From NCBI GenBank assembly GCA_964016885.1, contig OZ024745.1, forward strand, positions 87,978,001-88,042,000: 64,000 bases of DNA, read 5' to 3'. The DNA is from Eledone cirrhosa (taxonomy: Eukaryota). Position 1 is the stretch's first letter; each line of letters begins with the position of its first letter. The notes below the pieces were generated by a model. That model was not told the DNA's origin and did no database searches. It saw only the letters and a list, made by a program, of their open reading frames with translations. The translations under genes were made by a program, and so were the position numbers. Below are positions 3,105 through 48,489 of this stretch, piece by piece.

Positions 3105-3854
<750 letters not shown>

Positions 3855-3855
3855 C

Positions 3856-4150
3856 ACGTTAGAAGGCGAGAACAATGCAGGTTTGGAGATAGGATATAAA
3901 TGTAAAATATAACGCTGACAATTAGTCTTTTACCTTAATTTATTCATATATCCTGATATTTGGAGATGATATCTCTTTGTCTGAGCAAAGTAAAGGGGTT
4001 AATCCAGTGTCCGAAGTGGGTTGCTAAGTCATGCTGACCAGAAGTAGTATACCATTCTATTCTACTTCTAATGTCAAAGAGTGAAGGTTTAGGCAGGTCA
4101 AGTGGTTAAAGAGTTGTCTCGCTTTAAAGGGTTTGGACATGTATGTCTAA

Positions 4151-4182
<32 letters not shown>

Positions 4183-6478
4183 ATACATAAAGGTGCAGGC
4201 ATGCGCATACGTGTGTGTGTGTGAGAGGATACGTGGATATGTAAATATGAGGGCTAGATGCTCTAATATGTAGGGAGTACCACACATTCTAAGTGTGTAA
4301 GTGTGTGCGTAAAGATATAAGCATGCGTGTGTGTGTGTTTTTGTGTGAGCGTTGGAGGATACATAGAGATGTAAATATGAGTGTAGATGTTCTATCATGT
4401 TAAAAATTGAGTGTTGAGTTCTAATCTATTATTGATTTGTGATTGCGTTTTGTCTATAATTAATGCTTCTTTAATTCGAAGATTGCCGAGGTTTCTTTCC
4501 TTAGCTTCTATCCTAACTATTATGTTTTTGTTGATGTTTTTACATTTCCCTAGATGTTTCTTAAATGAGGAAGCATTAGTGTTGAGGTGTTCTTTTATTC
4601 TAATGTGCAGGTGTCTGTTGGTGTTCCCTACGTATAAGTTGCTACATTTGTCGCACTCTAATCTGTAGATGACGCATGCCTGGTGGCATAGGTTTGTGTC
4701 GTCGATGGGGCAGTTGGCCAGCTTGCAGCGGCTGTCTTGTCTGGTGGAGTGTCTCTTGGCTAGCTGTCCGCGTAGAGAAGGTCCTGAGTGGGCTAGCTGG
4801 ATATCTAATACCTCTCGCCTGGTGGTCCTGCGTATGACCGACCTGAAATGGACGAACAGGTTGCCTTTTTATAGAAGTAGGTGTGGATGTCACCTTCCTC
4901 TGTTACCCTGAGTTGGAAGTCTAATAGGGATAGGGATCCATGCTGAACTTTATATTGGCGTCCATGCTGGAGAATGCCATGTATATTTTATTCGCTTCTT
5001 CACGGGATGATGTAAGGATGAGAATGTCATCTACATATCGCGTGAACAAGGTACATGAATGGCAGGTGTTGAGGGCTCGGCATTCCAGCTGGTTCATATA
5101 AGTGATGGCCAGCAGGCCCGATAGGCTGGATCCCATGGGTAATCCTGTTGTCTGTCTGTATGTGTGGTGGTCGAAGGTGATATATGTGTTGTTCAGCGTG
5201 AAGGACAATACCTGGAGTATGTCCGTCGGATGGAGGCCGTAGCAGTGGAGGTCTTCGGCGACCATGCAGTCCGTTAATAAATTGACAGCTGGATGAGCGG
5301 CGACTGTAGTATAGAGGGAGACAACGTCGAGGCTAAAGGCGTATCTATTAAGTTAACTTGTTCTGGCTGGAGTTGGTGTAGTCTACGTAAAACCTTGTCG
5401 GAGCTACTGACATGCCCGGGAAAGGTGGAAAGTAAAAGCTTATGGACATGGAGATGAGCCAAGAAATTTTGTATAGGGGCCCTTCTATGCTAGAGACGAT
5501 GGGTCTTATTTGTGTCTCAGTACTATTCTTGTGGGTCTTGATGAGGTGATAGAAAGTGAGCAGTCTGCTATTTCTAGTGGTGTAGTTGGACTTAAATTTA
5601 TTTGGGAGATGTCGAACCAGATGGAGTTGGCCTGCTTTTCGATCTGGGCTGCAGTTTTTGTCCGGGACCTCTGTATACAGTTTGTTGTCGCTTAAATGTT
5701 CAAAAGCTAGGTTGTTGTATGTGGCTTCAGAGATGATACAAAACTGTTTCCCCTTGTCAGATGGTAAGTAGATAAGTTCCCTATTTCGCAGGTTCTTCAG
5801 GGCGAGTTGTTGCATCTTGGAGAGGTTTGGGGCTATCTTCCTCTGTTTCCGTAAGATGTTAAATACGGAATATTTTAGTCTCGAGAGTTTTTCTTCTAGT
5901 GCGCGGTTAGAAGGTGGTGGACAGAGTGGGCGGTCTAGTTGGTATATCGGGAATCTGTGTTAGGCGGCCCGACAGAAATTCGTTTCTATGTCGAGCCATA
6001 ACTTGTCTTCCAGTCTCTGTTTTAATATGAACTTGGGACCCAGGCTGAGGAGGTCTAGTTCATCTCGGGAGAGGGATCCTGTCAAGTCTGTGACAAGGTG
6101 TTTTGTTGGTCGTGGCGCCGCTAGGTTCGATGTTGGTACCGTCTTGTTTGCCTCTGTTGGTGCTTAGAGTTGGGTCGTTGTTAGGACGGTCAGCCGTTCT
6201 GAGTTTGATGAATTTTTGCTTTAAGCGTTTTTTCTCGTAATCTCGGCGATAGTGGTAGGACCTGTCTATAGCGGCGGAAATTACTCCGAGCAGAGGTTCT
6301 GGGGTTTCAGCCAGTTGCGGTACTAGGCTGGAAATTGCCCGTATGTGTTGTGGTAGCGTGAGGTGTAGGTGTTGTAGGAGTTTTCTTAGGCAAGATTTGT
6401 GTATGTAGCTAAGTGATCGTTTGAGGCCTGGTGATTTGAAGCATGTTGGTAGGTGCAGGTTTTTGATTGTTTTGGGGA
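3856..6478 (-). mobile_element. Penelope-like retroelement (RT plus C-terminal GIY-YIG), frameshifted
   Basis: Peptides PSDKG, IRPIVS, YRQTTGLPMGSSLS, RYVDDIL and, near 4560-4680, VIYRLECDKCSNLYVGNTNRHLHIRIKEH; 3' end abuts (TA)n. Confidence 0.92.
4921..5265 (-). pseudogene. PLE reverse transcriptase core fragment
   Basis: ORF contains GLPMGSSLS and YVDD motifs. Confidence 0.9.
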
Positions 6479-6657
6479 GCACCACCAGACACCTTCACAT
6501 TATATAAAAGAACACCTCAATACTAATGCTTCCTCATTTAAGAAACACCCAGGGAAATGTAAAAACATCAACAAAAACATAATAGTTAGGATAGAAGCTA
6601 AGGAAAGAAACCTCGGCAATCTTCGAAAGAAGCATTAATTATAGACACAAAATCAAT

Positions 6658-23806: not shown

Positions 23807-23862
<56 letters not shown>

Positions 23863-23867
<5 letters not shown>

Positions 23868-25290
23868 TAGAATAACAGATTAAAGTTTAAGCAAAGAATC
23901 GCTGCTTTCACCCTTAACGGGAACTTCTGAAACTAACAAAGTCAATCTGTAAACGCAGAAGTGGATATTTCAAAAAACGTTGCAACCGGAGGAAGACAGG
24001 AAGACGATACTTTGGTTCGTGGAAACGTTCGCTGGCAAAGAACGGGAAAAAACGAATATAATACGTCATTAATAGGAGCGGTGAAAAACAATTACGCGCA
24101 AAGACAGAACCACGTTTATGGTATAAAAGAGGTCGTAGACTAATGTTCTCTTAGGTGGTTCATAGAGACGTTCTCTGGCAATGAACGAAAAAAACGAAGA
24201 TAGTACGTCATATGTGGAGCGTGGAGAACAATAGCACGCAAAGACAAAACCACGTAAATGGTATAGCAGAAGTCGTAGACTAAAATTCTAACTATTTGAC
24301 CGAATGAATCTCCGCTACAGAGTTAAGAACAAAGTAAATAAATACAATACAGAAGCAAGGGAAATAAATAAATACATACACGCAAACAAATACGTACATA
24401 CACAAGCATACGCAAAACACTTACCATAGGTAAAGAAAACCATGCACATATAATATGTGTATGTGTGTTTGCGTGTATACAAATAAATAAATAATTATAT
24501 AAACGTATATAAATAAATACGTATATAACAAAAGCACACACATACCTACATGTAAATATACGAATGTTCGGAGACGTAAGTCAACCAAAACATGAAGTAC
24601 ACATACACACACTCTACATACGTACACACTGCATACTCACACAGAAGCAAAACTCCCGTATACACATAGCCAAACCATATGTACCAGTATATATAAAAAT
24701 ATACGCCATAACATAAACAATCAAATATACGTACGAGAAGGTATACGTACCTTCACAAAACATACGGGTAATATATACTTACCTATGCAAATAAGTAATG
24801 GTATAAACAAAACATACTTAGCTCCCACATCAAGACGTAAAATATCCACATATAGATCGTACTATCCGTTAGGGTATAACGTGGGCTGAAATACAGGAAA
24901 GTTTTGTGCAATTTATGTTTACAAGCCGAAATTGCCTCAGATTTTTTGTTTAAGATGTTGTCTGTGGCGTAGAGTATTTCCAGGGCCTCAGCGGCGCAGA
25001 GGTCACATGGTCTTTTATTTCCGTTATACGATCTAGCCCTAGCTAGGATCTCCCAGTGTAACTTATATTCGGTGTGGTTGTCTTTTAGACTCCAGATATA
25101 AGCTGAAAGTGACGTCATATTCCTTCTTAGAGGGTAACGAAAAGAATGGATATGCATGTAAAGACGCTGCTTGAATCTATTGGCCTACATAGGGTTAACC
25201 GCCAATAGATTCAAGCAGCGTCTTTACATGCATACCCATTCTTTTCGTTACCCTCTAAAAAGGAATATGACGTCACTTTCAGCTTATATA
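23863..25290 (-). mobile_element. 5'-truncated Hydra-clade-like PLE with 5' foldback inversion
   Basis: GIY-YIG C-terminal half (TSLSAYIWSLKD...PCDLCAAEALEI...CKHK) near-identical to 36345-36968; shared 3' UTR; inverted duplication at 25181-25290. Confidence 0.9.
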
Positions 25291-33659: not shown

Positions 33660-35970
33660 GCATTTATCGTAATAAATTAATATTTATTATATTATATAAA
33701 ATCACTATATTAGTTCTACCTTTATGGGAAGAATGAACTCTAAATAATGATTATATTATTGTACAATATATTTATATTTTCACAAACTATATATAGCGTT
33801 ATACCGAAACAATAGTTATGATTAAGTTATACATTATGAATATAGATGCAAAAGAAAACCAAATGCAGAGATATACTAATAATATGATTATGTTATTATA
33901 CAATATACACTTATTTGCAAAAAATTAGATATAGAGAGATATACTAAGTATTAATGAGACAGTATACATTTGGTAAATGATAACGATTATAATCTTATAT
34001 AATAGATTCAAACATGCATAAGTTAAATACATACATATATATAAAAGAGTGTAAACGCATGAATGATTCACAGTTCAAAATAAGGTCCGCAAAAATTTAC
34101 AGGTTGGATATTTGAACTATATTTAAAACATAGATACAAAAATAAAGATAGAGAAATAATGGTATGGATCAAAATTAGTAATATTATGTTATGTATATCA
34201 ACGTGTCAGCATGTTATTAAACAAGTGTCATTCATTCAAACGTTATTTCCTTTATAGATAGTAATAAGATAAAGCAATATTAAAGGCCATTAAGGTTTTC
34301 AACTGTTGATTATGTACGTCTAAAAGCCAAGTTTGGTTGGTTACTGTTTTTTCCTGGTCTTATGGGAGGCTTGGCATGTAGACAAGGCTTTATGAAGGCA
34401 GTTAGAGAATAATTCACTTTTTTGTTAATTAAGGTATCATAATTATTAATAATCTAAAGGGTCTCCATTGTACAAAGCGCGCAGTTACTTGATATACTTG
34501 AGTTGCGGTAAACTCCACTGTTCCGAAGTCTCGTCCAAAAAATGGAGTATTTTAAATTCTTCTCTTTTAATGACCATATAAACTGTGATAAAGAAGTGGA
34601 TGATTTCCTCTTGGAGTTCGAAAATGAGCATTTATGATTCGCAAATCTGGCTTTAAATGTAGAAGAAGTCGATCCTATCTAGTTGTATGTGTTGTAATCA
34701 GTTTTAACGGTGAATTTATACACCAAATTACTATCCAAACAATTATTTTGCAGAGGGCAATCAATTTTATTTCTACAATTACATTTTGGTTTATTATCAT
34801 TTATGTTAACACATAGATCATTATGCTGACTCTGCTTTAGAATTTTACTGTTTAATTTAGCAATGTTTTGGGCCATATTCATAGTTGTAGAATAAGACAA
34901 TTTAATAGTGTGTCTATTAAAATTGAATGGTATTTATGTTGAGTAGGGAAAGAGGTGGCCAAAGCATTAAAGAATAATTTTGCAATTGGTGTTCTAACTG
35001 CTACCGAAGCAGGGGGGGGGACCATATGACTGATTTAGATCTAGTTCTTTTCCTCAATTTGTTTGGAGTATGGGTGTTTGAATTATAATTATTAGAGTTT
35101 CGTTTATATATGACATTATTTTTATCAGGATTAAAACTTGGATTATTATTATCTACGTATTCTATATTATTCTCATATCCTTCCCTTTTTAACGCATTAT
35201 TGTTGTATGCTGCATTATCATCAAATATTGATTTATTGGCTGATATTCTATTAATGCGTTTTTGTACATTATTTACTATAGCTTGTTTTACAGATTTAGG
35301 GTGATTGGAATGGTTACTAACATAGTTTAAGTTTTCATTGGGCTTATGAAAAGGGTAATAAAAGCCATAGTTTAAGTTAAACGTAACGTCTAGGAAATTA
35401 ACTATTTTGGTACCATTTTCTACTACTAACTTAAGGTCATACATTTTAAAGAATTCTATTATACTTTTCTTTACTCTATTTAGTTCAATAATGATGTGTT
35501 TGACCACCGTACATAAAATGTCGTCCCTATATAAACCACGGGTAATCTCCGGCAGTTTTCTATTTATATTTAATATGAAAATTCCCAGAATGTCTGTGAT
35601 TTGCGCAGAATCAGATGCCCCCATAGTAATATCAAAGTTTCTATTTCTATCTGAGCGAGTCCAATACGCATTGTTGAAGTTAATAAGAGTTATTCTGGCT
35701 GTTAGTATGATATCAATTTCATCAGTGGTTAGATCAGTGTGCTTATAAGCGTAAGATAGAGCCTTATTTAGTAGGTTAGGTGCTTTGGAAGAATAGTAGT
35801 TTGTTATGTCCATCTGGATGAATTTATGGTTTTTCTCATCATCTATATTCTTGTACCATTCTATGACTTCATTTGTATCTTTCCACAAGCTCAAATTAGA
35901 TCTAATTTAAGAGCGGGTAAGATTCTATCGATGATGTTTTTACTGATTAGTCCAATATCCGATTTGGTAT
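33660..35970 (-). mobile_element. Hydra-clade-like PLE, frameshifted
   Basis: DITNYYSS, ITMGASDSAQITD, GLYRDD, VNFLDVTFNL, SNHP, CNCRNKIDCPLQNNCL..LVYK. Confidence 0.9.
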
Positions 35971-35984
35971 GTCATGTATCATTA

Positions 35985-36036
35985 TATTTTGTCTGATGAG
36001 GTCGTACTGTTGTACCTCTGAAATATGTATAATAAC
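35985..36036 (+). ncRNA. Hammerhead-like motif in a putative inverted pseudo-LTR
   Basis: TGT-CTGATGA-GGT...ACC-TCT-GAAA-TATGTA-TA-ATAACA; opposite orientation to the PLE, at its 5' junction. Confidence 0.45.
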
Positions 36037-36078
36037 ATTTAGTTGATCAAAAAGAGATCTATCTTATTAATATTTGTA

Positions 36079-36136
<58 letters not shown>

Positions 36137-36195
36137 TAGAGATAGAGAGAGAGATATTATATATATTATATATATGTTATATATATATATATTAT

Positions 36196-38072
36196 ATTTA
36201 TTAAAATAACAGATTAAAGTTTAGAATCGCTGATTTCACCCATAACGGGATCTTCTGAAACTGATATATATATTTATCCTTAACGCGAATAGGCCTAGAA
36301 GAAATAGATCCCGACGCATTATATGGTATAACCCACCATATAATATGGAGTGGGCCACACCATTAGCTAAGATCTTTCTCTCGCTTAAATATAGTAAAAT
36401 TTTTAATAGAAATACTATTAAAATTTCTTACTCTACGACTCCTAACCTTGCACATAACATCACAGCTTCAGATTTAGCTAAACTACCTAGCCGTAGGAAC
36501 ACGTGCAACCCTGTTGTTAGTACTAACTGTAATTGTAGAAATCGGGTTGACTGCCCCCTATCCGGGAAATGCCTCTCTAGTAGCATTGTCTACAAATGTA
36601 AGGTTGAAACACCCATGTCTCGTAGGGCCCACATAGGGTTAACCGCCAATATATTCAAGCAACATCTTTACATGCATACCCATTCTTTTCGTTACACTTT
36701 AAGAAGGAATATGACGTCTCTTTCAGCTTATATCTGGAGTCTAAAAGAGAACCATACCCAATATAAGTTACACTGGGAGATCCTAGCTAGGGCTAGATTG
36801 TATAACGGAAATAAAAGACCATGTGACCTCTGCGCCGCTGAGGCTCTGGAAATACACTACGCCAAAGACCACATCTTAAACAAAAAATCTGAGGCAATTT
36901 CGGCTTGTAAACATAAATTGCACAAAACTTTCCTGTATTGCAGCCCCACATTATACCCTAACGGATAGTACGACTATACGCGGATATTTTACGTCTTGAT
37001 GTGGTAGCTAAGTATATGTTATGTATATACCATTACTTATTTGTATAGTGAAGTATATTTTACCTGTATGTTTTGTGAAGGTACGTATAATTCCTCGTAC
37101 GTATATTTGATTGTATTTGTTTTGGCGTATATATAATATATTCTGGTACATATGCTTTTGGTTATGTGTATACGTGAGTTTTGCGTTTGTGTGAGTATGC
37201 AGGTTCGTACGTATGTAGGGTGTGTGTATATATGTACTTCGTGTTTTGGTTGACGTAGTCTCCGAACATATGTGTATTTACATGTAGGTATGTGTGTGCG
37301 CTTGTTATATACGTATTTATTTATTTATATACGTTTATTTAATTATATGTATACACGCACACACACACACATATATATGTATATTAATATGTATATTTCT
37401 ATATATAATTTTATGTGTATTTGGTGTATACATTCGTATGCTTGCGGGTAAAAACGTTGCGTGGGTTCTGTATGTGCGGGTTTTTTTTTGTGTACGTGCG
37501 TGTATTTGTATACCTATGGCGAGTGTTTTTGCGTATGCTTGTGTATTTACGTATATGGATACTTGTGTATGTATTTATTTATTTTCGATTACCTCTGTAT
37601 TTTATTTACTTTATTCTTAACTCTGAAGCCGCGAATCATTAAGTTTCCTAGTTAGAATTTTAGTCTACGACTTCAGCTATACCATTTACGTGGTTTTGTC
37701 TTTGCGTGCAATTGTACTCCGCGCTCCACATATGACGTATTATTTTCGTTTTTCCCGTTCATTGCCAGAGAACGTCTCTATGAACCACCTAAGAGAACAT
37801 TAGTCTACGACTTCTTTTATACCATAAACGTGGTTTTGTCTTTGCGTGTAATTGTTTTTCACCGCTCCAAATAATGACGTGTTATATTCGTTTTTTCCCG
37901 TTCATTGCCAGGGAACGTTTCCACGAACCAAAGTATCGTCTTCCAGTCTTCCTCCGGTTGCAACGTTTTTTGAAATATTCACTTTCGCGTTCACAGATTG
38001 ATTTTGTTAGTTTCAGAAGATCCCGTTAAGCGTGAAAGCAGCGATTCTTTGGTTAAACTATAATCTGTTATA

Positions 38073-38078
<6 letters not shown>
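36196..38078 (+). mobile_element. Hydra-clade-like PLE 3' portion with short inverted 3'-end copy (36196-36263) at the 5' side
   Basis: IWYNPPY, ISYSTTPNL, NCNCRNRVDCPLSGKCL..IVYKC..HIGLT; 3' UTR with ~135-bp internal duplication; (TA)n on both sides. Confidence 0.92.
36345..36968 (+). CDS. PLE linker plus GIY-YIG endonuclease (fragment)
   Basis: CxCx5Cx5C motif followed by IVY...HIG...FKQHLYMH...CDLCAAE. Confidence 0.85.
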   Translation: MEWATPLAKIFLSLKYSKIFNRNTIKISYSTTPNLAHNITASDLAKLPSRRNTCNPVVSTNCNCRNRVDCPLSGKCLSSSIVYKCKVETPMSRRAHIGLTANIFKQHLYMHTHSFRYTLRRNMTSLSAYIWSLKENHTQYKLHWEILARARLYNGNKRPCDLCAAEALEIHYAKDHILNKKSEAISACKHKLHKTFLYCSPTLYPNG

Positions 38079-39540: not shown

Positions 39541-39890
39541 ATAAGGTGAGTATATACGTTCAACAATCTGGCAGGAAGGTATACGTTGCTGACGATAGCT
39601 AATAAGCTTGAAACTAGTACAGCGTTCCTTTGTCAGTGTTGAACAAACGAACAACGATGGTTGCTAGACACTACGGCTTAATACGGGATGTTTGTTTACA
39701 AACACACCGAGCATTATAATAAATGTTCGGTGAATCCATACGTACATATATATATGTGTGCATGTATGTATATATATATACATACTACTGTACGTCTGTA
39801 TACATATATGTATGTACGTGTACATACTTATATTTAAGTAACAGCCGTACTAAGAGTGGGAAATGAAATTTCGTTTCATTTTTTCCGTTT
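39541..39890 (+). mobile_element. Partial copy of the 421-bp hammerhead (retrozyme-like) monomer
   Basis: Near-identical to 47792-48112 and 48182-48466; hammerhead at 39583-39625. Confidence 0.85.
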
Positions 39891-39947
39891 ATATATATAT
39901 ATGTATATATATAGTGTAAATGATTCTGGTATATATATATATATATT

Positions 39948-43327
<3,380 letters not shown>

Positions 43328-43350
43328 TGTATATATATATATATATATAT

Positions 43351-44947
43351 ATGTAATAAAATGAGACCCTCATCAGTGATTTGCCGAAGATCATAGATAT
43401 TTCATTGCATTAAAAATCATATACCTCACTTCGGTGCAATAATAACCAAAATAAGTTATTAGGACAATTAAAACGCGTAAAGCGAGTGAGACAGGAGAGC
43501 AACATAGTAAGGCTAACCAGGGGAAAGAAACAAGCTTCAAAAATTATTCTGTTTAGCATAAGCTAGGTGAATATATGAGCGCTTTTAGAACAGACAATAC
43601 AGAAGCGAAGGCTATGAGCGGAGAGAAGAAAATAGCTCTCGTGGTGTACAGGATGAAATGAAGAGAAGAGAGAGAAACAGTGAGTGAGTGAAAATGTGAG
43701 GAAGAGTTAACTGACATGACAGAGGGGGAGAAACAGAGAGAATAGGGGAACAGTAAGAGAGAGAGAGAAAAAAACACAGAATCGCAGTGGTAAATATATG
43801 TAATAAAATATAGAGAAAAATACTGCAGGTAGCACATGGATAACATGTAATAAAATGAGTCCCTCATCAGTGATTTGCCGAAGATCATAGATATTTCATT
43901 GCATTAAAAATCATATACCTCATTTCGGTGCAATAATAACCAAAATAAGTTATTAGGACAATTAAAACGCGTAAAGCGAGTGAGACAGGAGAACAACATA
44001 GTAAGGCTAACCAGGGGAAAGAAACAAGCTTCAAAAATTATTCTGTTTAGCATAAGCTAGGTGAATATATGAGCGCTTTTAGAACAGACAATACACGAGC
44101 GAAGGCTATGAGCGGAGAGAGAAAAAAATAGCTCTCATGGTGTACAGGATGAAATGAAGAGAAGAGAGAGAAACAGTGAGTGAGTGAAAGTGTGAGAAAG
44201 AGTTAATTGACATGACAGAGGGGGAGAAACAGAGAGAATGGGGGAACAGTAAGAGAGAGAGAAAAAAACTATGTTGTTCTCCTGTCTCACTCGCTTTACG
44301 CGTTTTAATTGTCCTAATAACTTATTTTGGTTATTATTGCACCGAAGTGATGTATATGATTTTTAATGCAATGAAATATCTATGATCTTCGGCAAATCAC
44401 TGATGAGGGACTCATTTTATTACATGTTATCCATGTGCTACCTGCAGTATTTTTCTCTATATTTTATTACATATATTTACCACTGCGATTCTGTGTTTTT
44501 TTCTCTCTCTCTTACTGTTCCCCCATTCTCTCTGTTTCTCCCCCTCTGTCATGTCAGTTAACTCTTCCTCACACTTTCACTCACTCACTGTTTCTCTCTC
44601 TTCTCTTCATTTCACCACGAGAGCTATTTTTCTCTCTCCGCTCATAGCCTTCGCTCGTGTATTGTCTGTTCTAAAAGCGCTCATATATTCACCTAGCTTA
44701 TGCTAAACAGAATAATTTTTGAAGCTTGTTTCTTTCCCCTGGTTAGCCTTACTATGTTGTTCTCCTGTCTCACTCGCTTTACGCGTTTTAATTGTCCTAA
44801 TAACTTATTTTGGTTATTATTGCACCGAAGTGAGGTATATGATTTTTAATGCAATGAAATATCTATGATCTTCGGCAAATCACTGATGAGGGACTCATTT
44901 TATTACATGTTATCCATGTGCTACCTGCAGTATTTTTCTCTATATTT

Positions 44948-44950
<3 letters not shown>
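43351..44950. repeat. ~490-bp monomer in tandem and inverted array, flanked by (TA)n
   Basis: Units start at 43351 and 43845 (494 bp); inversion at 44268; inverted units start at 44268 and 44751. Confidence 0.92.
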
Positions 44951-45033
<83 letters not shown>

Positions 45034-45041
<8 letters not shown>

Positions 45042-45205
45042 ATACTTCGGGAGGGTCATGTTGCCAATAAGAAACACACGAACCAGTTGCTTTCACTACG
45101 ATTTATTATAATAAATTTATAAATTTTTTATAATAAATTGAAGTGAAAGCAATAGGTGCGTGTGTTTCTTATTGGCAACATGACCCTCCCAAAGTATAAC
45201 AATAT
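45034..45205. repeat. ~170-bp palindrome
   Basis: ATTGTTATACTTCGGGAGGGTCATGTTGCCAATAAGAAACACACG ... CGTGTGTTTCTTATTGGCAACATGACCCTCCCAAAGTATAACAAT. Confidence 0.92.
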
Positions 45206-47234: not shown

Positions 47235-47296
<62 letters not shown>

Positions 47297-47802
47297 GAAA
47301 AAAATGAAACGAAATTTCATTTCCCACTCTTAGTACGGCTGTTACTTAAATATAAGTATGTACACGTACATACATATATGTATACAGACATACAGTAGTA
47401 TGTATATATATATACATACATGCACACATATATATATGTACCTATGGATTCACCGAACATTTATTATAATGCTCGGTGTGTTTGTAAACAAACATCCCGT
47501 ATTAAGCCGTAGTGTCCAGCAACCATCGTTGCTCGTTTGTTCAACACTGACAAAGGAACGCTGTACTAGTTTCAAACTTATTAGCTATCGTCAGCAACGT
47601 ATACCTTCCTGCCAGATTGTTGAACGTATATACTTACCTTATGCATATTAACGGCTGAGTAGCCCAATTTGCATATCGAGTGGGTTAATCGGCCGGGTGC
47701 ACCGAAAACGATAAACGAAAAAATGAAACGAAATTTCATTTCCCACTCTTAGTACGGCTGTTACTTAAATATAAGTATGTACACGTACATACAGGAAGGT
47801 AT

Positions 47803-47845
47803 ACGTTGCTGACGATAGCTAATAAGCTTGAAACTAGTACAGCGT
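47803..47845 (+). ncRNA. Minimal type I hammerhead ribozyme
   Basis: ACGTTG-CTGACGA-TAGCT-AATA-AGCTT-GAAA-CTAG-TA-CAGCGT: 6-bp stem I, intact core, palindromic stem III ACTAGT, GUA site. Confidence 0.88.
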
Positions 47846-48223
47846 TCCTTTGTCAGTGTTGAACAAACGAGCAACGATAGTTGCTAGACACTACGGCTTA
47901 ATACGGGATGTTTGTTTACAAACACACCGAGCATTATAATAAATGTTCGGTGAATCCATACGTACATATATATATCTGTGTATGTATGTATATACATATA
48001 CATACTACTGTATGTCTGTATACATATATGTATGTACGTGTACATACTTATATTTAAGTAACAGCCGTACTAAGAGTGGGAAATGAAATTTCATTTCATT
48101 TTTTTTCGTTTATCGTTTTCGGTGCACCCGGCCGATTAACCCACTCGATGTGCAAATTGGGCTACTCAGCCGTTAATATGCATAAGGTAAGTATATACGT
48201 TCAACAATCTGGCAGGAAGGTAT

Positions 48224-48266
48224 ACGTTGCTGACGATAGCTAATAAGCTTGAAACTAGTACAGCGT
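48224..48266 (+). ncRNA. Minimal type I hammerhead ribozyme
   Basis: Identical to 47803-47845, 421 bp downstream. Confidence 0.88.
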
Positions 48267-48489
48267 TCCTTTGTCAGTGTTGAACAAACGAGCAACGATG
48301 GTTGCTGGACACTACGGCTTAATACTGGATGTTTGTTTACAAACACACCGAGCATTATAATAAATTTTCGGTGAATCCATACGTACATATATATATGTGT
48401 GCATGTATATATATATACATACTACTGTATGTCTGTATACATATATGTATGTACGTGTACATACTTATATATATATATATATATATATT

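Follow-up and report, generated by a model that had tools for sequence, protein, structure and literature searches.

The window, that is, the whole stretch of 64,000 nucleotides of Eledone cirrhosa DNA (contig OZ024745.1) that was analysed, contains an insertion made of two arms of a tandemly repeated 421-nt unit, which are joined head-to-head at their 5′ ends and whose 3′ ends both run outward into (TA)n. Positions within the unit (q1 to q421) are counted from the predicted hammerhead cut after GUA, and the unit with its copies elsewhere in the genome is referred to as family A. The repeats of the window and their landmarks are the following:

47291-48473: head-to-head insertion; the 5′ ends of its two arms meet at 47792/3 and the 3′ ends run outward into (TA)n
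47291..47793, minus strand: minus arm, about q190-421 then q1-274, ending at the long 3′ site with the tail, joined to (TA)n
47792..48473, plus strand: plus arm, q374-421, q1-421 and q1-217, with its 3′ end at the short site and (TA)n directly after it
47840..48260, plus strand: full 421-nt unit (would-be monomer or circle) between the two predicted cleavage sites, q1-q421
47793..47850, plus strand: copy 1 of the type I hammerhead motif; cleavage predicted after 47839
48214..48271, plus strand: copy 2 of the type I hammerhead motif; cleavage predicted after 48260
47553..47610, minus strand: minus-arm copy of the type I hammerhead motif, in which one G-C pair of stem II has become G-U
47243..47293, no strand: (AT)n target, left flank
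48467..48488, no strand: (TA)n target, right flank, starting at about 48467
39541..39892, plus strand: single-arm copy, 5′-truncated, q343-421 and q1-274, hammerhead core at 39589
43351-44962: family C, a 490-530-nt non-coding unit in tandem and head-to-head copies

Four hammerhead cores start in the window, three on the plus strand (39589, 47809 and 48230) and one on the minus strand (47594). Two sites set the middle unit apart from the units on either side, and both vary across family A. The single-arm copy at 39541-39892 has (TA)n only at its 3′ end, which lies at the long 3′ site, and its 5′ end adjoins a fragment of a LINE-type reverse transcriptase (RT). The unit has a GC content of 37% and is non-coding, the longest ATG-initiated ORF in 47292-48473 being 97 aa, and no autonomous Penelope-like element (PLE) ORF (RT plus GIY-YIG) is present in the family A unit or its arrays. 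This layout agrees with the sequence-only reading of the locus, which had described a non-coding 421-nt unit with a hammerhead, head-to-tail copies flipped near 47792, a single stem II change in the minus-strand copy and a further copy at 39541-39890, the last of which is seen here as one arm reaching 39892.

A separate observation concerns q347-q17 (48186-48277), where motifs resembling a splice donor, a branch point and an acceptor lie around the hammerhead. An intron at this place was considered and set aside, as precisely spliced genomic copies numbered zero and the single match proved to be another deletion; because PLEs retain introns, this null result is weak evidence against an intron.

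The predicted hammerhead ribozyme

The full core and three helices of a type I hammerhead are present in consecutive units. In family A, helix I consists of 6 bp, an internal loop and a distal helix, helix II has 3-4 bp with a U.U mismatch at its base in place of G10.1-C11.1, and helix III is a single base pair closed by a palindromic tetraloop. The minimal hammerhead of PLEs is reported to have no helix III, a long helix II (7-8 bp), a short helix I and G10.1-C11.1 (PMC4209133). Of the intact minimal hammerhead claimed earlier, the hammerhead therefore stands and the word minimal does not, as helix III is present, helix II is short and U.U occupies 10.1-11.1; judged by its predicted structure, the ribozyme belongs with the canonical metazoan type I hammerheads and not with the minimal ones of PLEs. 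For the active axolotl hammerhead HHR_Amex2, too, U.U has been described at this base (PMC7229834).

In the predicted monomer fold of family A the core is paired with loop III, and the helix III hexamer is self-complementary (computed at -4.8 kcal/mol), so that action as a dimer is plausible in the model. Cleavage after GUA at 47839 and 48260 is predicted to yield a 421-nt product. The Rfam scan suggested along with the first description gave a divided answer: Hammerhead_HH9 matches copy 1 with 20.4 bits (E 0.0042), below its gathering score of 52, and a scan of 12 kb returned no hammerhead at E<=1. Folded as a circle, 47840..48260 reaches -134.1 kcal/mol with 70% of its bases paired (z -8.6 against 60 shuffles), a self-pairing that is partly due to a TA-rich palindromic segment (-117.6 for the opposite strand vs -134.1).

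Over 24 hand-picked variants of family A and its sister family B the core is invariant, two-sided changes affect 3 of 7 helix I pairs and 3 of 4 helix II pairs, and pairing cells amount to 85.8% vs 72.4% in shuffles. The count of pairs with a two-sided change shows no excess over shuffles (205/500), and these changes are few independent events in only two related families. The invariant core and the two-sided changes appear to mark a ribozyme kept under selection.

Abundance of family A

The core 18-mer of family A has 13,167 exact matches across the 3.0-Gb genome and its reversed control has none, from which it follows that the recurrence of the unit is not due to chance; the genome-wide copies that the sequence-only reading proposed to search for are thus abundant. 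Arrays range from 1 to more than 20 units, and families A and B together comprise more than 22,000 hammerheads. Family A is also found, under three organism labels, in contigs of four sequencing runs of unrecorded kind, one 533-nt contig covering 48044-48371 with 10 differences. With 9 long-array or compound loci set aside, divergence is 3.5-3.7% within insertions vs 3.6% between them, and family A is therefore silent on single-template copying; rare variants common to both arms are present (L015, L112) and few. The long family A arrays L115-L120 (G000:C28) contain higher-order periodic variants, as in a retrozyme turned satellite.

Ends of the insertions

An unbiased sample of 49 loci, chosen solely by the core 18-mer, provided 87 3′ termini, 61 of which fall at two fixed sites 57 nt apart (36 at the long site, q274, and 25 at the short site, q217, in family A), with (TA)n within 30 nt at 51 of the 61. 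Both start sites end in TTAT, bases in common with the target, and the 3′ ends lie away from the cleavage site, with the 5′ ends scattered over the unit. Targeting of (TA)n, as proposed from the window, where it is found on both outer sides of 47291-48473, is thereby supported; permuted ends, which had also been proposed, must be given up, since the 3′ ends are fixed at two sites and only the 5′ ends are scattered.

Top matches and unbiased loci were pooled into a sample of 40 head-to-head insertions, from which the compound locus L114 was left out (its pairs, examined by hand, each combine a long and a short end). An end outside the fixed sites occurs in 11 of the 40, and in every one of the 29 with both ends at fixed sites a long end is paired with a short one, in keeping with the PLE-style inversion inferred earlier. 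The 5′ ends of the two arms meet head-to-head, mostly with a few overlapping bases. Insertions of PLEs are described as having an inverted 5′-truncated copy and a tail at one end (PMC8557442), and for the anole PLE in vitro the tail is reported to be the stretch between two internal RT start sites, both target strands being cut and extended (PMC11167929). We infer that one of the two sites primes each strand, and the obligate long and short ends suggest how both target strands are used.

The cleavage site is crossed by 66 of the 80 arms (about 40 of them by selection, and about 26 of the 40 that were unselected). As the arms run through the cut, the template must be continuous there, either circular or a multimer left uncleaved. 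End-to-end jumps from one linear, cleaved monomer to another were rejected, as 5′ starts within 6 nt of the cleavage site number only 2 of 80, about the chance level, and the junction is intact.

Sister families B and C

Family B has a 466-470-nt unit and 9,512 pattern matches (the first 100 matches listed are all B); it aligns end to end with family A and carries a G-C-closed version of the hammerhead. Its end sites are q235 and q304, giving a tail of 69 nt, and a long end is paired with a short one in 12 of 12 head-to-head insertions. Head-to-head arrays of family B in (TA)n reach 25 identical units, a further locus being L103:1-707. At C1:30.83M (L151 and L166, G000) all 18 full units are identical across both arms, and at C18:30.95M (L296 and L297), where one arm has 17 units, 23 of 24 are. 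From its sequences family B is young, and family A is older.

The B haplotype of the 17-unit arm has 69 matches at 7 loci and occurs in no longer run; because it is common to 7 loci, identity cannot separate a circle from a homogeneous linear array. The perfect family B arrays could also have been polished by assembly. At C744 (L302) two diverged units stand in phase among identical ones. There (G000:C744), the switch of one arm from a diverged subtype to the identical haplotype falls between q468 and q70, an interval with the cleavage site in it. Some long arrays seem to have later grown or homogenised by local exchange, namely the C1:5.74M array, with 19 distinct units among 30 and nested variants, and the C28 arrays of family A, with nested common variants.

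Family C, present in the window at 43351-44962, has 4,665 matches, two 3′ ends about 56 nt apart and (TA)n flanks, and at L247 its units are identical (3/3). Neither motif scans nor Rfam found a type I hammerhead in it: CUGAUGA is present and a complete hammerhead is absent. Family C offers a natural control when asking what the ribozyme does.

A proposed Penelope-like partner

A PLE ORF on the same strand directly after the free 5′ junction was found at 0 of 32 such junctions, and PLE ORF pieces occur in 5 of the 49 unbiased loci, none of them as a pseudo-LTR (pLTR). Family A is non-autonomous, without LTR organisation and without a linked RT ORF. Constant attachment to a PLE ORF, which the sequence-only reading had named as evidence against itself, was therefore not seen, in a sample of less than 1% of the sites (about 100 of more than 13,000 loci were inspected in sequence).

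PLEs are plentiful across the genome. The window holds several PLE copies, and one further repeat:

40850-43327, minus strand: 5′-truncated PLE of a 785-aa family, recently amplified, whose long pLTR contains a microsatellite; at 40999 there is a hammerhead-like motif of atypical form
35001-38077 and 23812-25184: PLE copies of a 713-aa family, with a 140-bp tandem duplication in the pLTR and one head-to-head inversion
3853-6494, minus strand: broken PLE with RT and GIY-YIG matches, ending at (TA)n, which we take from its motifs to be Penelope/Poseidon-like
45038-45203: long near-perfect inverted repeat (MITE-like) adjoining (TA)n, with sub-threshold Rfam miRNA matches

Outside the window, the 3′ UTR of an ORF-bearing GIY-YIG PLE (L203, L204) contains a hammerhead with the same U.U helix II base and a palindromic tetraloop, in unrelated sequence.

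The 785-aa family has an intact ORF elsewhere (e.g., L101), (TA)n flanks and 150 of 150 scored matches that are 100% identical to the window copy. Both this family and the 713-aa family (L194) have RWK/RWR, DKT, CxCx5C, CxxC and CxH, and are of Hydra type because these motifs are marks of the Hydra clade, which is reported to insert in (TA)n (PMC8557442); an assignment to Neptune was dropped, as the motifs fit Hydra. The pLTRs of the two families have no similarity to A or B, and a homologous pLTR was found neither in GIY-YIG loci nor in the two Hydra-type families nor in two more from the neighbourhood, a few of the many PLE families. A pattern requiring the helix III seen in family A was used to look for further hammerheads and gave 17 matches vs 2 in the control, several of which were B variants, and no helper pLTR.

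At L016 and L111 a family A arm meets a Hydra-type endonuclease fragment head-to-head, which is no more than a lead, 2 chimeric junctions in 32 being about the expectation from PLE density. Retrozyme 5′ ends joined directly and head-to-head to such fragments were noted at L016:1755 and at L209/L210 (G000:C1:18.49M), possibly as chimeric insertions from two RNAs. The perfect multi-kilobase arrays of the young B branch occur beside an intact, recently amplified Hydra-type PLE, and we infer that the helper is most likely a PLE of this type.

Discussion

In this study, we have described a non-coding, non-autonomous element of 421 nt that is, with high confidence, a retrozyme mobilised by PLE machinery. 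Mobilisation of a retrozyme by a PLE RT had been the main proposal of the sequence-only reading; it gains from the PLE insertion anatomy, the (TA)n targets and the many copies, and loses its minimal hammerhead and permuted ends. As for the template, the sequences incline us, with some reserve, to a circular RNA that would be copied in trans by a Penelope-like RT/endonuclease. Transcription of copies longer than one unit would provide RNAs whose tandem hammerheads are predicted to cut, probably when two of them pair as a dimer by their self-complementary helix III, and the monomer would be closed by a host ligase, as in other animals. According to the end statistics, a PLE protein would then nick (TA)n on both strands and start cDNA at q274 and at q217, one per strand. 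The sequences of the insertions are those expected if each arm continues past the cleavage junction to an extent that varies, reaching 17 units in family B, and the two 5′ ends are then joined head-to-head.

A more specific scheme, which we advance only tentatively, is rolling-circle reverse transcription in two arms, templated by an RNA circle that the ribozyme would produce, in which the (TA)n strands would be primed at the two fixed sites, the arms would lap the circle up to 17 times, and arrays of up to 12 kb would be produced per event, a process that might be ongoing in family B. If true, this would be the clearest genomic case of circRNA-templated retrotransposition, together with the birth of a satellite in one step. 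Families A and B offer a defined RNA, start sites, a target and a candidate enzyme for an in vitro test of rolling-circle reverse transcription.

The same element and the same PLE machinery might instead work on a linear uncleaved multimer, or on one RNA that is re-engaged, the hammerhead being slow, regulatory or a passenger. Several reports and observations count against a circle: uncleaved RNA is described as the main in vitro substrate of the anole PLE, which inserts it with no effect of hammerhead mutants (PMC11167929), 8 of 9 Xenopus retrozyme dimers are reported as uncleaved (10.64898/2026.07.22.740005), and the three identical family C units at L247 arise without a type I hammerhead having been found. 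In family A, the U.U base and the predicted pairing of the core with loop III point the same way. The family C arrays in general, the several long source arrays of one B haplotype, the mixed in-phase units at C744 and the weak U.U stem II of family A are also in favour of a linear template. However, an RNA of up to 8 kb would have to pass 17 canonical G-C hammerheads uncut, whereas a circular template explains the identical units of family B simply. Moreover, arrays can only lose length by 5′ truncation, yet no differences separate the units of the longest arm and its PLE ends are fresh, and compensatory changes between A and B preserve the helices of the hammerhead. The linear template thus seems to us rather unlikely; if it holds, the elements still form a large undescribed repeat family, but an ordinary one.

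Two other readings depart further from a mobile retrozyme. The unit might be no more than a pseudo-LTR, belonging to an autonomous PLE of which the sample missed the full-length copies, in which case the tandem and inverted copies would be 5′-truncated products. The ends, tail and inversions are indeed as in PLEs, Xenopus retrozymes are reported to be related to pLTRs (10.64898/2026.07.22.740005), and the sites inspected are about 100 of the more than 13,000. Nevertheless, the tail is always preceded by a further unit and never by an ORF, unit-after-unit arrays reach 20 and more, none of the 32 free 5′ junctions enters a same-strand ORF, and the pLTRs of the PLE families compared carry other hammerheads, all of which makes this origin very improbable. 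Harder still to credit is a spread by recombination, with the unit a satellite or another DNA-level element and its hammerhead either fortuitous or dead. The nested common variants of the C28 and C1:5.74M arrays are typical of unequal exchange, but recombination does not account for what the dispersed copies show, namely 3′ ends at fixed sites, 5′ ends at random and long ends strictly paired with short ones, and for these copies this reading is largely refuted.

The retrozyme class is known and its link to PLEs has already been argued. Retrozyme circles were proposed as templates of the PLE RT between 2014 and 2020, and in the available text of these sources the link consists of co-occurrence and pLTR similarity. 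No cephalopod retrozyme appears in the mostly open-access literature surveyed, which likewise holds no account of obligate long/short ends or of perfect multi-unit arms in retrozymes. The metazoan non-LTR retrozymes of coral, mussel and axolotl (Cervera and de la Pena 2020, PMC7229834) resemble family A in having a non-coding tandem unit of a few hundred nucleotides with a GC content below 50%, a type I hammerhead per unit, a self-paired circle (predicted in our case), thousands of copies and PLEs in the same genome. Their reported size of 170-400 nt is slightly exceeded by family A, and the available text of that study does not describe for them the head-to-head arms, the tail of PLE type or the (TA)n target that family A has. 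The vertebrate retrozymes regarded as non-autonomous PLE derivatives (Li et al. 2026, 10.64898/2026.07.22.740005) also co-occur with PLEs and form monomers, dimers and multimers, and 421 nt falls inside their reported range of 51-972 bp; their link to PLEs is given as pLTR homology, whereas that of family A is insertion anatomy.

In the case of EN+ PLEs, as described for the Hydra clade (Craig et al. 2021, PMC8557442) and for anole Poseidon PAc (Frangieh et al. 2024, PMC11167929), the likeness lies in 5′ truncation, partial tandems, an inverted 5′ copy, a tail at one end, a (TA)n or AT-rich target and two internal RT start sites. Their tail is reported as 30-40 nt vs 57 nt in family A and 69 nt in family B, and, unlike them, family A is without an ORF, consists entirely of the repeat and has start sites that end in TTAT. 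The non-autonomous Chlamys elements, such as MRC1, are also non-coding PLE parasites with multicopy head-to-tail insertions; as described, they are without hammerheads and have 3′ sequence in common with their helper, which places them nearer to family C than to family A (PMC8557442).
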